Below the pieces are notes generated by a model. The model was not told the origin of the DNA, ran no database searches, and saw nothing but the letters and a program-made list of their open reading frames with translations. A DNA stretch of 63,774 bases, the filler included, from Candidatus Methanoxibalbensis ujae (GTDB lineage Archaea > Halobacteriota > Syntropharchaeia > Alkanophagales > Methanospirareceae): NCBI GenBank assembly GCA_026134085.1. It is 4 parts of 4 records of this genome, joined end to end, with 100 filler letters (N's around TTAATTAATTAA, not from the genome) between each part and the next. Parts side by side here need not be neighbours in the genome. Positions count along the whole stretch, not along the records: positions 61,440 to 63,774 come from JAOQIN010000083.1; 3 more parts are not named here. One strand, given 5' to 3'. A program made the position numbers and the translations under genes. Shown one piece after another: positions 34,985 through 63,774 of this stretch (position 1 is its first letter; every line of letters starts with the position of its first letter).

Positions 34985-37900
34985 ATGCGCGAGCGTCTGA
35001 CGGAGATGTGGGAGGAGTTTCTTGAGAAGTATTACTGGGAGGATGTGATAGCGCTTTCAAATGAGTATCCTGAGAAGCGCAGTTTATATGTGAGGTTCAC
35101 GGATGTGCTGAAGTATGACATTCATCTTGCTGATCTTCTGCTGAATGATCCTGATGTGGCGCTGCAGACAGCATCAGAAGCGCTGCGCACATTTGACATA
35201 CAGACAGGCGTCTCACTTGAGAACGCGGTTGTGAGGATTGTTGAGATCCCATCAAGCATTAAGATTCGCGACATAAGGAGCGAGGACATCGGCAAGCTTA
35301 TATGTGTGGAGGGTCTTGTGCTGAAGGTGACTGAAGTTCGTCCTAAAATGGTGAGCGCGGCATTTGAATGTCCGCTGTGCCACAATGTTTTTTTCGTGCC
35401 CTGGATTACGAGGTTCAAAGAGCCTGAGAAATGTGATATATGCGACAGAAAGGCTCGTGGGTTCCGTCTTGTGGTTGAGAAGAGCAAGTTCATAAATGCG
35501 CAGAAGATAAGGATTCAGGAATCTCCTGAGGAGCTGAGGGGTGGGGAGCTCCCTCAAACGATAGATGTGAACCTTGAAGAAGATCTCACAGGTCTCATAT
35601 CGCCAGGCGAACGAATAAAAGTGACGGGAATACTCCGCTCTTATCAGATGCAAAACAGCCCTTTTTTCGGCATATTCATTGAGGGAGTCTCAATTGAGAA
35701 AAGCGGGGAGGAGTTCGAAGAGATAGAGATAACAGAGGAAGATGAGCGAAGGATAAAGGAATTTGCTTCGCTTCCAGATGCTTATGAACGGTTGAAGAAC
35801 AGTATTGCACCCTTTATATACGGATATGAGCGCATAAAAGAGGCGTTGCTGCTTCAACTCTTCGGTGGCGTGCCTAAGGAGCTTCCTGATGGCACAAAAA
35901 TAAGAGGCGATATACACATATTGCTCGTCGGAGATCCCGGAGTTGCAAAGTGTGTCAGCGGAGACACAGAAATAGTGCTTGCGGATGGCTCTGTTCATGA
36001 GATAAGAGCACTCTCCCACAGTATAAGCGGCTTCGTGGATGACGGAGTGTTCATGAGAACTGATTTAGATGTTTTCTCAATGAGTTCAGACGGCAAAATC
36101 ACGAGCTCAAAGGGCGACCTGCTGTGGAAGAGAATTGCTCCTCAAAAATTGCTGCGCATCCGCACAAAATCAGGTCGTGAGATAGAGGTGACGCCCTCTC
36201 ATCCCTTCTTCACATCTGAAAGAGGGCGCATTATCATGCGGAAAGCGGAGCACCTGAAAGCCGGAGATTTCATCGCAACACCGCGAAAAATAAAAGTGAG
36301 AGGGGAGCCACAGTCAATCGTTATAGGAGACAAAATTGTTAAAACCACTCCAGAATTCTGGAGGTTCATGGGCATCATCACTGCTGAAGGGCGTTTTATG
36401 CGTCATGACATCTGCAATTTTGTTTTTCAGGGAGGCGTTCGTTTCAGTTTCTGCAAGTCATTGCTTGATACCATCGGTTTTTCAGAATATGATGTGCCCA
36501 AACTTCTTTTCAAATGCACTAAGCGAGAGATTTCAGCGTTTATTTCAGCGCTGCTCGGCTGTGATGCGAAGCCATGTGGTGGCAGCATACGCCTCACATC
36601 ATCATCGCGAAAACTGCTCGCCCATGTTCAGCATCTCCTGTTGAGGTTCGGCATATTGTCACGGATACATCGCGTGCGCGGTGCAAAGAATGTTTATTAT
36701 CTTCTGATATCTGGAGATGTCACCGGAGATTATTTCGTCAGGGCTGGAGACGATGCTGAGGCATCACGCTGGAGAAATGACAGGCGCTGCTTCTGCAGCA
36801 TGGATGTCTGCAGCATGGATGTCATACCAGATATCTCCTCATTGTTGAGGGAGATAAGGCAGGAGCTGAGGATGGCACATGATGAGTGTGGTGTTCGTCA
36901 CATGCGTCATTACGAGAGCGGTGAGAGAAATCCAACGAGAAAGGCGTTGAACAAGATAATTGAGCGCTTTGAACGCAGAATGGAGGAGGTGAAAAGGAGA
37001 TCTGGATTCGGGTGCTCTGAAGGAGAGAGCTCAACCGAATGCAGCTGTTCAGGTGCGTTGAGCGATTATCCGATGTCTGCTGAGGAGATTGAGAGTGTGC
37101 GGAAAAAAGTGGAAGTGCTGAAAAAACTTGCGAATTCAGATATTTTCTGGGATGAGATCTCTGATATAGAGGAGATAAAACCCTCAGAGCCATATGTTTA
37201 TGACATTCAAGTGCCATTTCATCACAACTTCGTCGCAAATGATATTTTTGTGCACAACAGCCAGATGCTCTCCTACATTGCAGAACTTGCGCCACGCGGC
37301 ATATACACAGGCGGCAAGAGTGCCACAAGCGCCGGTCTCACTGCTGCAGCCGTGAAGGACGATTTCGGTGAGGGTCGCTGGACGCTTGAGGCAGGAGCAC
37401 TCGTCCTTGCGGACAAAGGAATTGCAGCGATAGACGAGATAGACAAGATGGAAAAAAGGGATAGAGATGCAATGCATGAGGTGCTTGAGCAGCAGAGCTA
37501 CCATCCCTCATTTTCAATTGAACTCGCAGATGGCGTTTATAAGATAGGTGATTTTGTTGAATCCATTTTCAGAAGATATGCTCACAGAGTTGTGCGTGGC
37601 ATCAGATGTGAGATAATATGGACTGATGACCTGAACATTGAAATACTTTCAACAGATTTTCGCAGCATATTCAGGACGAGGGTGAACAGGGTCAGCAGGC
37701 ATGAAGCACCCGATTATTTCGTGCGAATAAAATATGAGAGTGGAAAGGAGATTCTGGTGACGCCTGAGCATCCGGTATTTGTGATGAGAGATTGTGAAAT
37801 TCATGCGGTTGAATCATCAAAGGTGGAAATCGGAGACTTCTCTCCCGCCACCTTTCCGTCTCTCTCCGTATGTGGGATGAACAGTGCATGTGAGAACAGT

Positions 37901-39151
37901 GCATGTGAGATTAACAGAGAGATGGCGACACAGCGGCATTGCGGCGTGCATGCTGAATCAGCGGCATCGTGGCGTGAAGGCTGTGTGGATGCTGCGAGAG
38001 ATGCGGATGCTGCGAGAGGTGTGGATGTTGCGAGAGATGCGGATGTTGCGAGAGATGCGGATATTGTGAGAAAACCGCACAGCGCAGCTTTCACGCTTTT
38101 GAGGGTGATAGATGTTGAGATCGTTCCGAATGAAGGCAGATACAGGACGAAATGGGTTTATGATGTGACTGTGGAGCCGACACACACATTCATAAGCCAT
38201 GGGCTCATACTGCACAACACGGTAAGCATAGCGAAAGCGGGCATCACCGCAAGGCTGAACGCGAGGTGTGCATTGCTCGCAGCGGCAAATCCAAAGCTCG
38301 GAAGATTTGACAAATACACTCCGATTTCCGAGCAGATAAACCTGCCTCCCACGCTTCTTTCGCGCTTTGACCTCATTTTCACGATGATGGACGAGCCAGA
38401 CGAGGTTGAGGACAGGAAAACTGCCGAATACATACTGGATTCGCATATTTACGGCGAGATTCTTATGAGGAAGCGCATTGCGATGAAAGGCGATTTAAAG
38501 ATGAGCGAAGTGATGAGCGATATCAGCACCCATATCAGCACCCAGCAGACAGCGCCCGACAGAGCAGCAGAATATAATGAGGTGATGCGCAGGGTTTCCA
38601 ATATTGTTGACGCTGAACTTTTGAGGAAGTATGTGGCATATGCTCGTAAAAACATAATTCCGGTGCTTTCAGAAGGCGCTCGCAGACGCTTCCTTGATTT
38701 CTATATAAATCTGAGAAGGCAGAGCTATGGGAATGAGAACGCACCTGTTCCCGTCACAGCGAGGCAGCTTGAGGCGCTGATAAGACTTGGAGAGGCTCGC
38801 GCTCGCGCATCACTTCGTGATGTTGTCGTGGAGGAAGATGCAGAATGCGTGATAGACCTTGTCTCATATTGTCTCAATCGTGTTTTCGTGGACCCCGAAA
38901 CGGGGAAGTTGGATGTGGATGTCGTGACAATAGGCACGCCCAAAACGAGAAGAGATCGCATGAAAATGCTCCTTGACATCATAAAAGAGCTGGGAAGAGA
39001 GTACGGAAGCGATGTTGTTCCGATCGAAGAGGTGCTTGATATCGCCGAGGAGAGAGGCATTGACAGACAGAAGGCGGAAGAGCTGATTGAAAAACTGAAG
39101 AGGGAGGGTCTCCTATACGCACCACGAAATGATATGATAAAGATCGCATGA
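34985..39151 (+). CDS. mcm: MCM replicative helicase with two inteins
   Basis: N-domain Zn finger CPLC..CDIC; GDPGVAK|SQ Walker A; IDEIDKM Walker B; SRFDL Arg finger; TARQLE. Confidence 0.97.
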   Translation: MRERLTEMWEEFLEKYYWEDVIALSNEYPEKRSLYVRFTDVLKYDIHLADLLLNDPDVALQTASEALRTFDIQTGVSLENAVVRIVEIPSSIKIRDIRSEDIGKLICVEGLVLKVTEVRPKMVSAAFECPLCHNVFFVPWITRFKEPEKCDICDRKARGFRLVVEKSKFINAQKIRIQESPEELRGGELPQTIDVNLEEDLTGLISPGERIKVTGILRSYQMQNSPFFGIFIEGVSIEKSGEEFEEIEITEEDERRIKEFASLPDAYERLKNSIAPFIYGYERIKEALLLQLFGGVPKELPDGTKIRGDIHILLVGDPGVAKCVSGDTEIVLADGSVHEIRALSHSISGFVDDGVFMRTDLDVFSMSSDGKITSSKGDLLWKRIAPQKLLRIRTKSGREIEVTPSHPFFTSERGRIIMRKAEHLKAGDFIATPRKIKVRGEPQSIVIGDKIVKTTPEFWRFMGIITAEGRFMRHDICNFVFQGGVRFSFCKSLLDTIGFSEYDVPKLLFKCTKREISAFISALLGCDAKPCGGSIRLTSSSRKLLAHVQHLLLRFGILSRIHRVRGAKNVYYLLISGDVTGDYFVRAGDDAEASRWRNDRRCFCSMDVCSMDVIPDISSLLREIRQELRMAHDECGVRHMRHYESGERNPTRKALNKIIERFERRMEEVKRRSGFGCSEGESSTECSCSGALSDYPMSAEEIESVRKKVEVLKKLANSDIFWDEISDIEEIKPSEPYVYDIQVPFHHNFVANDIFVHNSQMLSYIAELAPRGIYTGGKSATSAGLTAAAVKDDFGEGRWTLEAGALVLADKGIAAIDEIDKMEKRDRDAMHEVLEQQSYHPSFSIELADGVYKIGDFVESIFRRYAHRVVRGIRCEIIWTDDLNIEILSTDFRSIFRTRVNRVSRHEAPDYFVRIKYESGKEILVTPEHPVFVMRDCEIHAVESSKVEIGDFSPATFPSLSVCGMNSACENSACEINREMATQRHCGVHAESAASWREGCVDAARDADAARGVDVARDADVARDADIVRKPHSAAFTLLRVIDVEIVPNEGRYRTKWVYDVTVEPTHTFISHGLILHNTVSIAKAGITARLNARCALLAAANPKLGRFDKYTPISEQINLPPTLLSRFDLIFTMMDEPDEVEDRKTAEYILDSHIYGEILMRKRIAMKGDLKMSEVMSDISTHISTQQTAPDRAAEYNEVMRRVSNIVDAELLRKYVAYARKNIIPVLSEGARRRFLDFYINLRRQSYGNENAPVPVTARQLEALIRLGEARARASLRDVVVEEDAECVIDLVSYCLNRVFVDPETGKLDVDVVTIGTPKTRRDRMKMLLDIIKELGREYGSDVVPIEEVLDIAEERGIDRQKAEELIEKLKREGLLYAPRNDMIKIA
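35951..37258 (+). mobile_element. Intein 1 in MCM Walker A (436 aa) with degenerate LAGLIDADG endonuclease and HTH-like region
   Basis: GDPGVAK|CVSGDT...TPSHPFF...VYDIQVP..NFVANDIFVHN|SQ. Confidence 0.93.
37496..38218 (+). mobile_element. Intein 2 in MCM (241-aa Ser-start mini-intein)
   Basis: HEVLEQQ|SYHP...VTPEHPVFV...WVYDVTVEPTHTFISHGLILHN|TVSIAKAG. Confidence 0.92.
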
Positions 39152-40667: not shown

Positions 40668-41858
40668 TCATCCCACGCCGCGCGCAGCATCGCAGATTTC
40701 CGCCACCCCTCTGCACATGAAATACACGGCAGCACACACAGGAAGTTCTGCTTCTTCGCCATCTTCAACTGCGTATTCATGTCCTTTCATTCTGACTGCA
40801 TTTCTTTTAAGCGCTTTCACGCGCACTGTTCTGTCGCTGCTGAATGCCACCGCATCCTCAAGAGGCTCAAAATCATCAAGCTCTTTCACGCTGAGAGGTT
40901 TCACAATGAGCCCCGTTTTGCCATGAAGCGATGTTGGCATTCTTATGAGGCGGTGGATGTCAGAAGTCACAGGCGCATCTGGTTTCATGCTTCGCAGTGA
41001 AACAGCATGGTCCTGAATAAGCCTGCAATGCACTCCTGGAATCCAGCGGAGCCTGTTGTCAAGCATGCATCTTGCCACCCACTCCTCAATCGCATCATCA
41101 TCCATCTTCGCCATGAACTCAACGACTTTCATTGCACTTTTCACACCAACACCATCAATCCTGCAAAGCGCCTTGACTGCATCATCCCTATCCATGCGCT
41201 TTATTTCGCGGAAAAAATCCATAAGCCCTCTGAATATCCTTCGCCTCCATCCTCCCCCATGCCTCCACGCCTCGCTGCCGATACCGGGATCCACGCTCCT
41301 GAACTCGCTGTCAAGACCACTTGCACTCAGATAATCAACAATTTCCCTCCGCTCCTTGTTTCGGAGCGCACGCACATCATCACGACACACATGAACATGA
41401 TACCCGCGAGCACCAGAAAACACGATCTCTATATCCCGCTCATCTATCCCAAAATCAGCAACAAGAAAATCCATGAGCTTTGCTGTCTCCACTTTTACAC
41501 GCTCAAGCATCTTATCGTAGCTTATCTCTCCTCTGATAATATGATCGGCGTCGATAATATGATCAGCGTCAAGATCAAATATCAGGTCAGCACCTCTCCA
41601 CCCCTTATCAGCCATGTTCGCTGCTGAGGGTCTCTCATATATCGCAGACGAGAAAAAAACATGTGCGGGCGCATTCTCTCGCAGAAACGAGCGGATCTCC
41701 GCAGCACTCCTGAACGCCCTGTGCCTGCTCATCATTTTCACTCCAAACGGAATGAAACCCCACTCACGCATCCAAAAATCCCTGGGCATGCTCAATCCAG
41801 CCCGCTTATAATACGATGCGAACATGCGACGCAGAAATCTCACAGTATCGTAATTCAT
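40668..41858 (-). CDS. priS: DNA primase small (catalytic) subunit
   Basis: REWGF, GADLIFDLDADH, FSGARGYHVH, D.PVT.DIHRLIR.P.SLHGKTG. Confidence 0.96.
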   Translation of the reverse strand: MNYDTVRFLRRMFASYYKRAGLSMPRDFWMREWGFIPFGVKMMSRHRAFRSAAEIRSFLRENAPAHVFFSSAIYERPSAANMADKGWRGADLIFDLDADHIIDADHIIRGEISYDKMLERVKVETAKLMDFLVADFGIDERDIEIVFSGARGYHVHVCRDDVRALRNKERREIVDYLSASGLDSEFRSVDPGIGSEAWRHGGGWRRRIFRGLMDFFREIKRMDRDDAVKALCRIDGVGVKSAMKVVEFMAKMDDDAIEEWVARCMLDNRLRWIPGVHCRLIQDHAVSLRSMKPDAPVTSDIHRLIRMPTSLHGKTGLIVKPLSVKELDDFEPLEDAVAFSSDRTVRVKALKRNAVRMKGHEYAVEDGEEAELPVCAAVYFMCRGVAEICDAARGVG

Positions 41859-60701: not shown

Positions 60702-61016
60702 TGTGCGGGCTAGCCTGGGGGGTTCGGCGTCCCCTGTAACCCGAAACCGTCGGCATGCGGGAGGCGAAGCCTGAGGGCGGCTCCGGATGCTGCGAGTGCA
60801 GCTCGGCGCCCGACTGTGAGGCATCGTCCTGCGGGGTCGCCGTCGGCGTCGTGCATTCTGGAGGGAATGTGCGGCGTCATGACCGCGGGCACCGGTTCAG
60901 GCCCGGAAGGGAGCAGACCCACCGCGGGCGGTCGGCGCTCGCAGGGTCGCGGTGCTGAGAAAGGCGCTGAGGGACTGGCTCGTAGCAAAGGAGCCAACCG
61001 ATGGCGTGCCCGCACA
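60702..61016 (+). ncRNA. Archaeal signal recognition particle (7S) RNA
   Basis: Terminal helix TGTGCGGGC/GCCCGCACA; Alu-domain GGGGGGTTCGGCGTCCCCTGTAACCCGAAACCG; helix 8 TCAGGCCCGGAAGGGAGCAG. Confidence 0.95.
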
Positions 61017-61225
61017 TTCTGTTGCATGGCAATATGCATAATTGTCGCAATGCGAGTGGAAATTGAAATCTGCTATTCCAGAGAGGCACTTCGCTCTCCT
61101 CATCCCGCCTTCCGATTCAAAGAGCGGGGCATCACGAAAAAGAAAAGAGAGAAAGAAAAGAGGCAGTTTAAGGAAATAAATGGAAGATAAGGAAGGAAAT
61201 GGAATATAAGGGGATATTATCCATT

Positions 61226-61439: not shown

Positions 61440-61516
61440 GGAGGGCGTCCCTGCCCTCCGTTTTCGTTCATTTTTTCCACCATAACCCTTAAAAAGCGAA
61501 AGGACGAATGGTAAAG
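61440..61516 (+). repeat. 77-nt terminal direct repeat (assembly circularity overlap), copy 1
   Basis: Exact match to 63698-63774. Confidence 0.97.
61488..61495 (+). promoter_or_regulatory. Possible TATA box for the coat-like gene
   Basis: CTTAAAAA about 30 nt upstream of the GGAGGTGA SD and ATG 61536. Confidence 0.4.
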
Positions 61517-61535
61517 CGTGGCGGGAGGTGATAAA

Positions 61536-61883
61536 ATGAGGCGAAAAGCGAACAAAATGAGGTCGTTTTTGAAAAAGGCGAAAGAAATCCTCTTGCACAA
61601 AAGCAAGGGTTTCAACGACATGGTGTATATGGCGACGGCGATAATTTCAACGGTTATCGTTGCGATGATTGGCGTCTATATTTCCGCCCAAATCTACGAT
61701 GTGATGAACCTTGAACCCGACAGTCCATTTCAAACGGCGATGCAAGGAGCGATAAACATTATGAACACGACCTATCCGTTGCTCGTTGTTGTCGCTATTG
61801 GCATCATAGCGGGCATCGTTATGAGCTATTTGCTCGGTGGATTCGGTGTTGCAGGAGGAAGCGAAAAGCAAAAGGGACAATAA
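61536..61883 (+). CDS. Putative major coat protein (two hydrophobic helices, class III-like leader) of spindle/rod-shaped archaeal virus type; pilin-like alternative
   Basis: GGAGGTGA SD; basic leader ending KSKG|F; hydrophobic helix 1, loop, NTT sequon, helix 2 YPLLVVVAIGIIAGIVMSYLL. Confidence 0.6.
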   Translation: MRRKANKMRSFLKKAKEILLHKSKGFNDMVYMATAIISTVIVAMIGVYISAQIYDVMNLEPDSPFQTAMQGAINIMNTTYPLLVVVAIGIIAGIVMSYLLGGFGVAGGSEKQKGQ

Positions 61884-62010
61884 ACGCTGAACACTACCGC
61901 CTACCGCCTAATCGCCCTTACTGGATTGTGAGGGGCGAAACGGATACGCCCTGATTTCCGATTTTTTCGCCTTCAGGGTCGGTAAAGGTTCAAATCCCCT
62001 TTCGGCAACC

Positions 62011-62026
62011 GAAATATATTTAAATA
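62011..62026 (+). promoter_or_regulatory. BRE/TATA promoter upstream of the HTH gene
   Basis: GAAATATATTTAAATA about 45 nt before ATG 62072. Confidence 0.6.
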
Positions 62027-62071
62027 AGGGCGAAAGTAGGGAAAGGAACGATAATAAGGGTGAAAGGTGAA

Positions 62072-62611
62072 ATGGAGACGAAATTGGCGGAATTGGAAAG
62101 GGAAAAGGAAAGGGAAAAGGGCGAAAGGGTGATTACCGTCCAAGTTCCCGTAGAGGTTCAACGGTTCAGGCGTTTAAGCGTTGAGGAACGAGTGGAAATT
62201 GTCCGAAAACTCTACTTTGACGAAGGTTTGACCTATGACCAAATCGCAAAGGTTCTCCGTATAAGTCCCCGTGATATAGCGAAAGCGGTAAGAGGCGAAA
62301 AGATAACAGAAACCGAAGCGGACAAGTTAAGGGCGGAAATACGGGAATGTAAGCAAAAGATAAAGGAACTGGAAGAGCGATTAGACCGTGCTTCAAGGTT
62401 CATAAGGGCGACATTCGCCCATTTTACCGTTGAATATAGCGACCTGTTCGGCTCGGAAAAGGTAAAAGGCAAACTCTTTGTCTTTTGTCCCTATTGTCGC
62501 AAACTCGTCCATTTGACCTATAAGGAAGTTCCAACGCCTGAGTCGGAAAAGGAAAGGGAAAAAACGGTTAAAATGTGGGTGTGCGAAAAATGTGGCAGAA
62601 TACCGTTCTGA
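62072..62611 (+). CDS. HTH-coiled-coil-Zn-ribbon DNA-binding protein
   Basis: AGGTGA SD; HTH LYFDEGLTYDQIAKVLRISPRDIAKAV; heptad segment; CPYC...CEKC. Confidence 0.75.
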   Translation: METKLAELEREKEREKGERVITVQVPVEVQRFRRLSVEERVEIVRKLYFDEGLTYDQIAKVLRISPRDIAKAVRGEKITETEADKLRAEIRECKQKIKELEERLDRASRFIRATFAHFTVEYSDLFGSEKVKGKLFVFCPYCRKLVHLTYKEVPTPESEKEREKTVKMWVCEKCGRIPF

Positions 62612-62963
62612 CCTTTGACCTTTTGTCTATGTCTAAGGGCCCGGGCGATGAACTATATAATCCCCCCCTTTTCCCCCCCTTAAATCCGCCGATTCTCCAG
62701 GGGGGAGGTATTATATGTCTTGGGCGACCTCTTCCTTTGACGAGAGGGGCATTTCTGTGCGTCTCATGCGATTTTTTTCGGGGGTCACGGACACGAAAAA
62801 CTCGGCTCACAGGGCGTTTTCGCAAACCCCTCGCCGTATTACTTTTTCGCCCTTTCGTAATACCTCATGGTCGCCTTACTCGCCCTTGCGAAAGGGAGGT
62901 GATGGAAGTGGAAGCGTCGTAAGGGCGTAAGGCGACGAAAAAAAGGCGGGAGGTGATGGAGCC

Positions 62964-63443
62964 GTGTCTGTTTGGGAATTGGACAAGTCGGAACTTATAA
63001 CTTTCGGTCAGCGACGGGGATATGCGGTGAAACTCTACGAATACTCGTTCAGAGGTCGCAAGGGTCGCTTTCTGACGATTGAGCAGTATGAAGCGATGCG
63101 AGATGACTATCTCGGCGAGTATATCAACCGACGAAAGTCGCAGGTTACAGTTCCAAATGCGGAAATAGCGAGGCGAATAGCGAGGGAACTATTTTATTTC
63201 GCCGAACAATTGGAGCAGTCGCAGGGCGACAAGGGTCAATTGTCCGCTGACGAAGAGCGAGACATAAAGGCACTTGTATCGGACTTGCTCGGTGAAAGGA
63301 AAATGAACGAAAACGGGGCGGTGGAACCGCCCCAAAATGAACGGAACGAGGAACAGAACGATGAACAAAGGACTTCGTTTCGCCCCAAAGTGCATAATAG
63401 ACCGCCTTCTGAAAGTTCCACTGGCGAGGAGGGAGCAGATTAA
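62964..63443 (+). CDS. Hypothetical protein, possibly PC4/PUR-like ssDNA-binding with acidic disordered tail
   Basis: GGAGGTGA SD 7 nt before GTG; beta-beta-beta-beta-alpha pattern rich in aromatic/basic residues. Confidence 0.55.
   Translation: MSVWELDKSELITFGQRRGYAVKLYEYSFRGRKGRFLTIEQYEAMRDDYLGEYINRRKSQVTVPNAEIARRIARELFYFAEQLEQSQGDKGQLSADEERDIKALVSDLLGERKMNENGAVEPPQNERNEEQNDEQRTSFRPKVHNRPPSESSTGEEGAD
63300..63344 (+). promoter_or_regulatory. Hairpin motif copy A (candidate strand-specific replication/priming site)
   Basis: AAAATGAACGAAAAC-GGGGCGG-TGGAA-CCGCCCC-AAAATGAACGG. Confidence 0.65.
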
Positions 63444-63684
63444 GGAGGTAGTCCATGACCCCGACGCATCACACTTTCAGAGGACTTGGGTCGTCGGAAC
63501 GCTTGCATTCTGGGGCTACTCATACGAAGAGGTCGCAGACATTCTCATTAAGCACTGGAAAGAGGGACACTGCGAGACATGGAAGGACTTTTCGCCCAAA
63601 GAGACAAGGCGACAAGTGGAATGCTGGTTCAGGAAATTCGGTCAAAAGGTCGCAGAGAAGCGAAAACGGTATCTCGGTCGTTAG
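63361..63684 (+). CDS. Stand-alone primase large-subunit CTD / PriX-like helical protein
   Basis: FAPKCII.RLL...SHFQR..V...L...G.S.EEV..IL...KDFS.KETRRQVE parallels PriL-CTD FPPCI..LL...H..R..L..FL...G...EI...PDF....TRYQV. Confidence 0.65.
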   Translation: MNKGLRFAPKCIIDRLLKVPLARREQIKEVVHDPDASHFQRTWVVGTLAFWGYSYEEVADILIKHWKEGHCETWKDFSPKETRRQVECWFRKFGQKVAEKRKRYLGR

Positions 63685-63687
63685 TAG

Positions 63688-63732
63688 CCGTTCATTTGGA
63701 GGGCGTCCCTGCCCTCCGTTTTCGTTCATTTT
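63688..63732 (-). promoter_or_regulatory. Hairpin motif copy B, inverted (candidate strand-specific replication/priming site)
   Basis: Minus strand AAAATGAACGAAAAC-GGAGGGC-AGGGAC-GCCCTCC-AAATGAACGG. Confidence 0.65.
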
Positions 63733-63774
63733 TTCCACCATAACCCTTAAAAAGCGAAAGGACGAATGGTAAAG
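63698..63774 (+). repeat. 77-nt terminal direct repeat, copy 2
   Basis: Exact match to 61440-61516. Confidence 0.97.

Follow-up and report, generated by a model that had tools for sequence, protein, structure and literature searches.

The stretch of DNA analysed here (63,774 nt, hereafter the window) comes from the genome binned as Candidatus Methanoxibalbensis ujae (GCA_026134085.1) and consists of four contig pieces joined by N spacers. Its last piece, 61440-63774, is an entire contig (G000:C82) with a 77-nt terminal repeat (61440-61516 equals 63698-63774), which makes it a 2258-bp circle, separate from the other contigs of the window. We found that this circle carries a stand-alone gene for a predicted helix bundle related to the primase subunit PriL's C-terminal domain (PriL-CTD), that the gene belongs to the invariant core of a family of small circles, presumably of deep-sea archaea, and that it lies between two inverted hairpin sites with a covarying stem. 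By analogy with known replicons, it is on balance probable that the circle is a minimal replicon, primed at the hairpin sites with a borrowed catalytic primase, for which the helix bundle would be the primer-initiation module. The circle and its core, in window coordinates, are as follows.

61440-63774, no strand: whole circular element, unit 2258 bp, with the terminal repeat and the joint 63697->61440
62640-62950, plus strand: core; conserved non-coding block with C-runs and several stems, defined by identity across relatives
62964-63443, plus strand: core; open reading frame (ORF) 4, a protein with a probable PUR/PC4/Whirly fold (about residues 1-90) and a disordered acidic tail
63300-63344, minus strand: core; hairpin site A, overlapping the tail of ORF4 and the start at 63337
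63337-63684, plus strand: core; ORF5, a stand-alone predicted helix bundle of the PriL-CTD(Fe-S_N)/PriX/PriCT type, 115 aa (107 aa from 63361)
63688-63732, plus strand: core; hairpin site B, an inverted copy of A directly after the stop codon, at the right edge of the conserved module

An earlier note on this DNA had read the 107-aa ORF at 63361-63684 (+) as a stand-alone PriL-CTD/PriX-like protein, and our translation matches the protein that it quoted. An in-frame ATG at 63337 extends the ORF to 115 aa and is probably the true start, since its position is inside the upstream hairpin site and four relatives (L011-L014) have no start other than the equivalent ATG. The ORF is a real gene under purifying selection, because its dN/dS is 0.19-0.31 against all six relatives tested, compared to 0.64-3.3 in the two shifted frames; none of the 16 aligned copies has an in-frame stop. 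The protein has a short, variable N-tail and a basic, strongly conserved C-terminal helix, and Arg41 is invariant in 15/15 complete circle copies. A weak search among proteins of 416-2000 aa found no longer form, in agreement with the stand-alone claim. We also considered a frameshift fusion of ORF4 with ORF5; none was seen, and where the two overlap the constraint lies on the ORF5 frame only.

The homology to the PriL-CTD/PriX/PriCT helix bundle was borne out by HHalign, in which a 17-row alignment of the family (P0015, P0019 and P0022 being left out as repeats or unrelated) matched 23 PriL rows at 90.9% and E 1.1e-6 over 59 columns. H38, R41, D76, F77, T82 and Q85 align to the invariant PriL residues H266, R269, D295, F296, T301 and Q304. 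The aligned stretch corresponds to PriL 255-313 only, so the ORF indeed stops before the PriL Fe-S cysteines: C250, C321, C330 and C338 all lie outside it, the last three being invariant in the 23 PriL rows. At 107-115 aa, with neither the N-terminal PriS-binding domain nor the four Fe-S cysteines, the protein is not a PriL. The equation of its FAPKC motif with the PriL FPPC motif did not hold, as the motif is not part of the aligned stretch and distant relatives do not retain C11. The family profile matched in 37/401 genomes, and the 30 loci fetched comprised 19 PriL genes and two Prim-Pol ORFs with a helix-bundle domain on their C-terminal side; among 19 members scanned, only P0021 passed the PF04104 cut-off. 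Separately, two to four of the cysteines C11, C71 and C88 (63391-63624), with C55 in most relatives, are kept in the circle subfamily; they misalign with the PriL Fe-S ligands and possibly form a disulfide or a new metal site.

The likeness to PriX is partial. The Pfam scan gave no PriX (PF18689) match to the helix-bundle ORF at E<=1, and of the PriX nucleotide-binding site D70-x-R72-x-R74 only the central arginine is present, R41 being presumably equivalent to R72 by way of PriL R269, as judged from PMC5700102 rather than by superposition. With a PriX cluster of the ESM Atlas, the feature score is 0.79, which we take as no more than a lead. The ORF itself has no real Pfam or PHROG match, Foldseek against the PDB returned nothing at E<=0.001 for either core protein, and PDB sequence searches gave no meaningful match. 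The top fold match of the helix-bundle protein in BFVD was A0A0C5K163 (TM 0.63, rmsd 1.4, 141 aa). A predicted complex of PriS, PriL and the helix-bundle protein scored 0.00 ('no answer'), which bears neither way.

We then examined the relatives of the circle. One metagenome scan yielded 15 related loci, hence 16 with the window, with unit lengths of 1618-2315 bp. Most bins of 62650-63750 are 64-87% identical to the window (50% at the indel-rich 62900 bin), compared to 23-57% outside, and this delimits a four-part core: the non-coding block, the PUR/PC4-like ORF, the helix-bundle ORF and the two inverted sites. Both ORFs occur in 16/16 loci, and each cargo family in at most seven: a C2H2-led trio in seven, a helix-turn-helix (HTH)-Zn ribbon protein in six, an AbrB/MazE-like protein in five, a separate 115-aa protein in four and a capsid-like protein in three. 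This supports the placement of the helix-bundle ORF in the invariant core, as expected of a replication gene, with the other genes as swappable cargo. IMG/VR held no close relative of the three circle proteins tried. The helix-bundle gene relative at L186:110-1692 is, by eye, apparently interrupted beside a reverse-transcriptase-like ORF, which suggests a group II intron insertion.

The claim that neither the circle nor its relatives encode an archaeo-eukaryotic primase (AEP) or a Rep protein stood: among 28 representatives of ORF families of at least 80 aa, taken from both strands (17 smaller families were left out), there was no primase, Rep or helicase Pfam match, and no locus has an ORF longer than 252 aa. 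An HUH-like 'HYH' motif in a 129-aa cargo protein was discarded, as it is not kept in the homologue and is absent from the window circle. The circles thus appear to keep only a cis-acting set (the non-coding block and the two inverted hairpins) and two small non-catalytic proteins, and since they carry no recognisable catalytic gene, the enzyme part is seemingly borrowed from the host or from a helper virus.

Each hairpin site spans 45 nt and consists of a GTTCAT box, a GC stem of 7-8 bp, a loop of 3-5 nt, a T-run and a second GTTCAT box. The site pattern has two matches in the 63.8-kb window and none in 100 shuffles. The two sites flank the helix-bundle gene in inverted orientation in 14/15 relatives, the remaining locus (L016) ending before site A. 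We assessed the stem, specified beforehand by the analyst, on 18 hand-picked distinct site copies: 94% of cells are paired (55-68% in slid controls), 7/8 pairs have changed on both sides and 0/500 shuffles did equally well, figures which do not amount to a probability because the copies are related. In anatomy and covariation, the pair corresponds to the two inverted hairpin single-strand initiation (ssi) sites of IncQ-type replicons, and sites A and B are hence candidate ssi-like priming sites. In 11/11 larger elements, no inverted hairpin pair was found near the gene. A further 70 matches to the site pattern in IMG/VR were judged to be chance because they come without the core genes or a comparable stem. 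In several members (63300-63344 and its equivalents in L002-L008), GGAGG occurs in the hairpin of site A as read on the mRNA strand, directly before the conserved ATG, an arrangement by which read-through of the upstream ORF tail and translation of the helix-bundle gene may be coupled.

The non-coding block shows 68-82% identity across ten relatives over 62650-62900, versus 23% just outside, and no frame is open across it in all members. Compensatory changes occur in 10/60 of its predicted pairs, and it has no Rfam match; we consider it a candidate melting/entry site or promoter/leader. A 71-aa ORF (62715-62930) and the antisense frames were rejected as genes, being not open across members and having dN/dS of 0.4-0.9. 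The PUR/PC4-like protein is likely a putative ssDNA-binding or duplex-destabilising protein.

Taken together, these features can be arranged in a replication cycle modelled on the IncQ plasmid RSF1010. The duplex would open, with the putative PUR/PC4-fold protein holding or melting single strands, and sites A and B, whose pairing is indicated by covariation, would then be extruded as hairpins on opposite strands. By homology, the helix bundle may bind the T-rich strand beside the hairpin together with the initiating purine nucleotide, via Arg41, and an AEP from outside the circle would make the primer. Provided that the GTTCAT strands serve as templates, the primers would face each other across the gene, and a borrowed polymerase and helicase could copy each strand continuously round the circle.

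As for the origin of the helix bundle, its nearest protein kin is the ANMV-1 hypothetical protein AJP62017 (E 3.8e-30 with the family profile); the BFVD match A0A0C5K163, also of 141 aa, is presumably the same protein. The circle protein scores 61 bits against the viral stand-alone family, compared to 0.6 bits against the host PriL, and it therefore appears, from these scores, to derive from the viral family of ANME/Methanosarcinales viruses and not from the host PriL. The stand-alone kin occur in 38-46-kb tailed viruses and proviruses, are often C-terminally extended and form a lone gene among small early-type genes; 2/8 of the larger loci with the same domain have their own Prim-Pol within 10 kb. 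In L020-L023 (L024 is nearby), the stand-alone gene follows a conserved protein of ~355 aa that has no Pfam match, a possible partner in proviruses.

We next considered which enzyme could be borrowed. The most likely lender is the host PriS(L), a choice that we make tentatively. It is favoured because Saccharolobus contains more PriS than PriL and PriX, in a molar ratio of ~13:2:1 (PMC5700102, PMC12019639), and because neither ANMV-1 nor the virus G416, both carrying the stand-alone protein, has a PF09250 or PF01896 match. Likewise, 20 ORFs of ANMV-1 and most of the long ORFs of G416 gave no Pfam match to a primase, polymerase or helicase, although parts of the long ligase-domain proteins of these viruses are unannotated. 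Two points weigh against the host enzyme: PriX needs, besides D70/R72/R74, an N-terminal tail (residues 10-27) that anchors it to PriSL by binding PriL (PMC5700102), whereas the circle protein has the arginine only and a short, variable tail, and two of the larger loci bring their own Prim-Pol. Next comes the Prim-Pol of a helper virus, in our estimate rather unlikely, and made plausible by these same two loci together with the AEP encoded by pletoitzamnaviruses of ANME-1 (10.1101/2022.07.04.498658). Hence, of the proposal that the host PriS is recruited to the element's own origin, the origin gained candidate sites in the two inverted covarying hairpins, and the host PriS as partner was not established.

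A bolder version, which we offer more hesitantly still than the choice of the host enzyme, is that the circles represent an enzyme-free class of replicons, in which a viral PriX-like adaptor makes the sequence-unspecific host PriS(L) prime site-specifically at two hairpins and for leading strands only, the PUR-like protein opens the DNA and ANMV-1-type viruses hijack the host primase with the same adaptor.

Among other explanations, the one that survives best, although we think it unlikely, takes the helix bundle as no longer involved in priming and instead as a site-specific DNA-binding initiator or autoregulator on the GTTCAT boxes, with the start made by a transcript, an R-loop or host priming and the hairpins as operators or terminators. 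The incomplete PriX motif, the conserved basic C-terminal helix and the position of site B right after the stop codon and of site A over the start would all suit such a role, and a PriCT-1 domain with an HTH unwinds origin DNA in the ColE2 Rep (PMC5862659). However, Arg41 and the D-F/Y-x4-T-x2-Q signature common with PriL are kept, and identical flanking boxes, present on both strands, would be superfluous in terminators.

Alternatively, the protein could be a decoy or inhibitor that occupies the host or helper primase or primed templates, the circles being replicated by helper Rep functions on the non-coding block. The lone early-type gene of larger viruses and proviruses and the Prim-Pol near two of these genes are compatible with this, as is the frequent interference of satellites with their helpers (10.1101/2025.02.15.638363); an accessory inhibitor should nevertheless behave as cargo, yet the gene is present in 16/16 loci and lies between the two conserved sites, and we consider this explanation improbable.

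We find it equally improbable that the hairpins are recombination or resolution sites, serving cassette swapping or multimer resolution, with recombination-dependent replication aided by the PC4-like protein. The conserved module is bordered on the right by site B exactly and on the left by an ATGAAC box, and a T5 PC4 homologue is implicated in recombination-dependent replication by its PDB title. Moreover, three loci of 4.1-4.5 kb (L002, L006 and L010) each contain two different circle types in tandem, joined inside the common core, which may be hetero-multimers or assembly joins. On the other hand, the circles encode no recombinase, the assembler may have joined the tandem contigs via the common core, and the primase-type helix bundle would be left without an explanation.

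Finally, it is very improbable that the assembly produced the circle as an artefact, or that we see a piece of a larger element with an unassembled primase gene: all evidence comes from short-read assemblies and the capsid-like segment is also found on other contigs, but 5/16 loci have exact terminal repeats, 77-123 nt long (three further loci have near-terminal ones), the identical 2258-nt closing joint is present both in run X1, a possible source, and in run X3 of a different study, and members of the PUR-like family are recorded on contigs of at most 6074 nt, none longer.

To return to the replicon primed with a borrowed primase, its host and its helper were considered through the binned genome and the cargo genes, with the following further features of the window.

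40668-41858, minus strand: PriS of the binned genome (chromosomal, context only), PF01896 E 1.6e-24, contig C16
61536-61883, plus strand: cargo; 115-aa protein with two hydrophobic helices, probably like a spindle-shaped-virus major capsid protein, in 3/16 loci
62060-62611, plus strand: cargo; HTH, coiled-coil and Zn-ribbon regulator-like protein, Pfam HTH_38 E 2.5e-4 (below cut-off), in 6/16 loci

The earlier note took the binned genome as the host, which was not established. Its PriS sits on contig C16 and its PriL on C2, the bin is their sole link to the circle, and a near-identical circle was binned with Bathyarchaeota. The binned genome shares its family with a Methanophagales/ANME-1 genome, and stand-alone relatives occur in 7/54 genomes of that family. 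None of the 128 CRISPR spacers of the binned genome matches any circle (best 25/36 bases; shuffled best 0.68). No circle match was found in 68 genomes of the order, apart from short matches like a ribosome-binding site, or, with two queries, in 400 genomes of the phylum, a weak search that scored two to four candidates per genome. In tetranucleotide composition, the circle and the genome correlate at 0.47, a value that falls between the 5th and the 25th percentile for host fragments.

With respect to a helper, the capsid-like ORF has a weak match to phrog_16261, 'virion structural protein' (E 0.007), and homologues in 5/400 other genomes, three of the five being small similar proteins and one (E 3e-13) lying in an integrase-bearing element; the ORF has no PDB sequence match, and there is no ATPase on the circle. 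Its core (61602-61831) is common to other contigs in runs X1-X3 that share only that core, with a word depth in X1 of ~155-160 compared to 850-910 for the circle, depth not being a copy number. This sharing is suggestive of a helper virus, and the circles with capsid-like cargo, including that of the window, are probably satellites of a spindle-shaped virus. The integrase-bearing element (G392:C1, L040:16892-17233 to L041:7262) is integrated, encodes a 1015-aa unannotated protein and a tyrosine integrase beside the capsid-like homologue and is possibly a helper-type provirus.

The CRISPR-targeted contig C86 of the binned genome was rejected as the helper, having neither a capsid-like nor a helix-bundle homologue. 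This contig (G000:C86, L114-L116; 45,912 bp, GC 0.40), which lies outside the window, has at least seven near-full-length matches from the genome's own CRISPR spacers, encodes RuvB, a DEAD helicase, a TROVE/Ro60 protein and a glycosyltransferase and looks like a virus or mobile element of the binned organism, with no recognised capsid. TROVE/Ro60 proteins occur in two ANME-1-associated mobile elements (L022:6371-8083 and L114:11468-13057). Elsewhere in the window we noticed, by eye, a 1388-aa MCM-like ORF with two large intein-looking insertions (34985-39151) and, after a cobyrinic-acid-synthase-like gene, a GC-rich intergenic stretch (60710-61030) that looks like a structured RNA, possibly the signal recognition particle RNA.

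If the proposal is right, a mobile element commandeers a primase by supplying the initiation module alone. The two parts, naturally separated, would then serve as a test of the model in which it is up to the helix bundle whether a primer is started, and at which place. For ANMV-1-like viruses, in which the replication genes lack annotation, a gene of this kind could then be named. The 107-115-aa protein and the two 45-nt candidate sites are open to direct assay, and the ~1.1-kb core is a candidate minimal vector backbone if a host is found. Replicons of this size fell below the >10-kb cut-off of an ANME-1 mobilome survey (10.1101/2022.07.04.498658). As the earlier note had supposed of the strategy, the literature searched, which covered few subscription papers, contained no description of the circle family or of a mobile element with a stand-alone PriL-CTD-like gene; the accessible portions of PMC11529989 and PMC12934983 describe nothing like the family.

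Several known systems share parts of this arrangement. The satellites of spindle-shaped archaeal viruses (SRCEs, pSSVx and pSSVi) are likewise small circles in which a hydrophobic capsid-like gene is found together with modules that can be swapped, and in the case of pSSVi a helicase reportedly contacts the host primase. SRCEs, however, are 2.7-9.0 kb and carry a rolling-circle Rep or an AEP-helicase (10.1101/2025.02.15.638363), compared to the 1.6-2.3-kb circles, where neither was found. NMV2S encodes a helicase-primase (10.64898/2026.08.12.739948). ANMV-1 AJP62017 and its provirus kin are annotated as 'hypothetical' and, unlike the circle genes, have no flanking hairpin pair that we could find. 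The PriCT-1/PriCT-2 and pRN1 helix bundles belong to the same superfamily, and our profile matches domains fused to Prim-Pol; PriCT domains are described as fused to the AEPs of mobile elements (PMC5862659), whereas the circle bundle stands alone, with no AEP found on the element.

PriX resembles the circle protein in being a separate gene for an Fe-S-free, PriL-CTD-homologous bundle with a conserved arginine at the start of the central helix. It is, however, an essential chromosomal subunit of the Sulfolobales PriSLX, with D70/R72/R74 and a PriL-binding N-tail (PMC5700102), and the circle protein is encoded on a mobile element and has the arginine only, no tail and no PF18689 match. The IncQ plasmid RSF1010 resembles the circles in its two inverted hairpin sites, ssiA and ssiB: its RepB' primes on two 40-nt inverted repeats, with the hairpin at nt 7-27, starting on T with dATP (PMC8567376). 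RSF1010 encodes its catalytic domain fused to the bundle, together with the helicase RepA and the initiator RepC, none of which has a Pfam match on the circles, and separated RepB' domains supplied in trans gave low amounts of short products, the authors favouring action in cis (PMC8567376). In the circles, it is the gene itself that lies between the sites, and there is an additional protein with a probable PUR/PC4 fold. In summary, the circle replicon would work like an IncQ ssi replicon combined with PriX and is a member of neither, because RepA, RepC and the catalytic domain are absent, as are the tail and the complete PriX motif. The feature is real and larger than first noted and would be a new variant of replication module among archaeal plasmids and satellites, one that would be categorically new if reprogramming of the host primase were shown.
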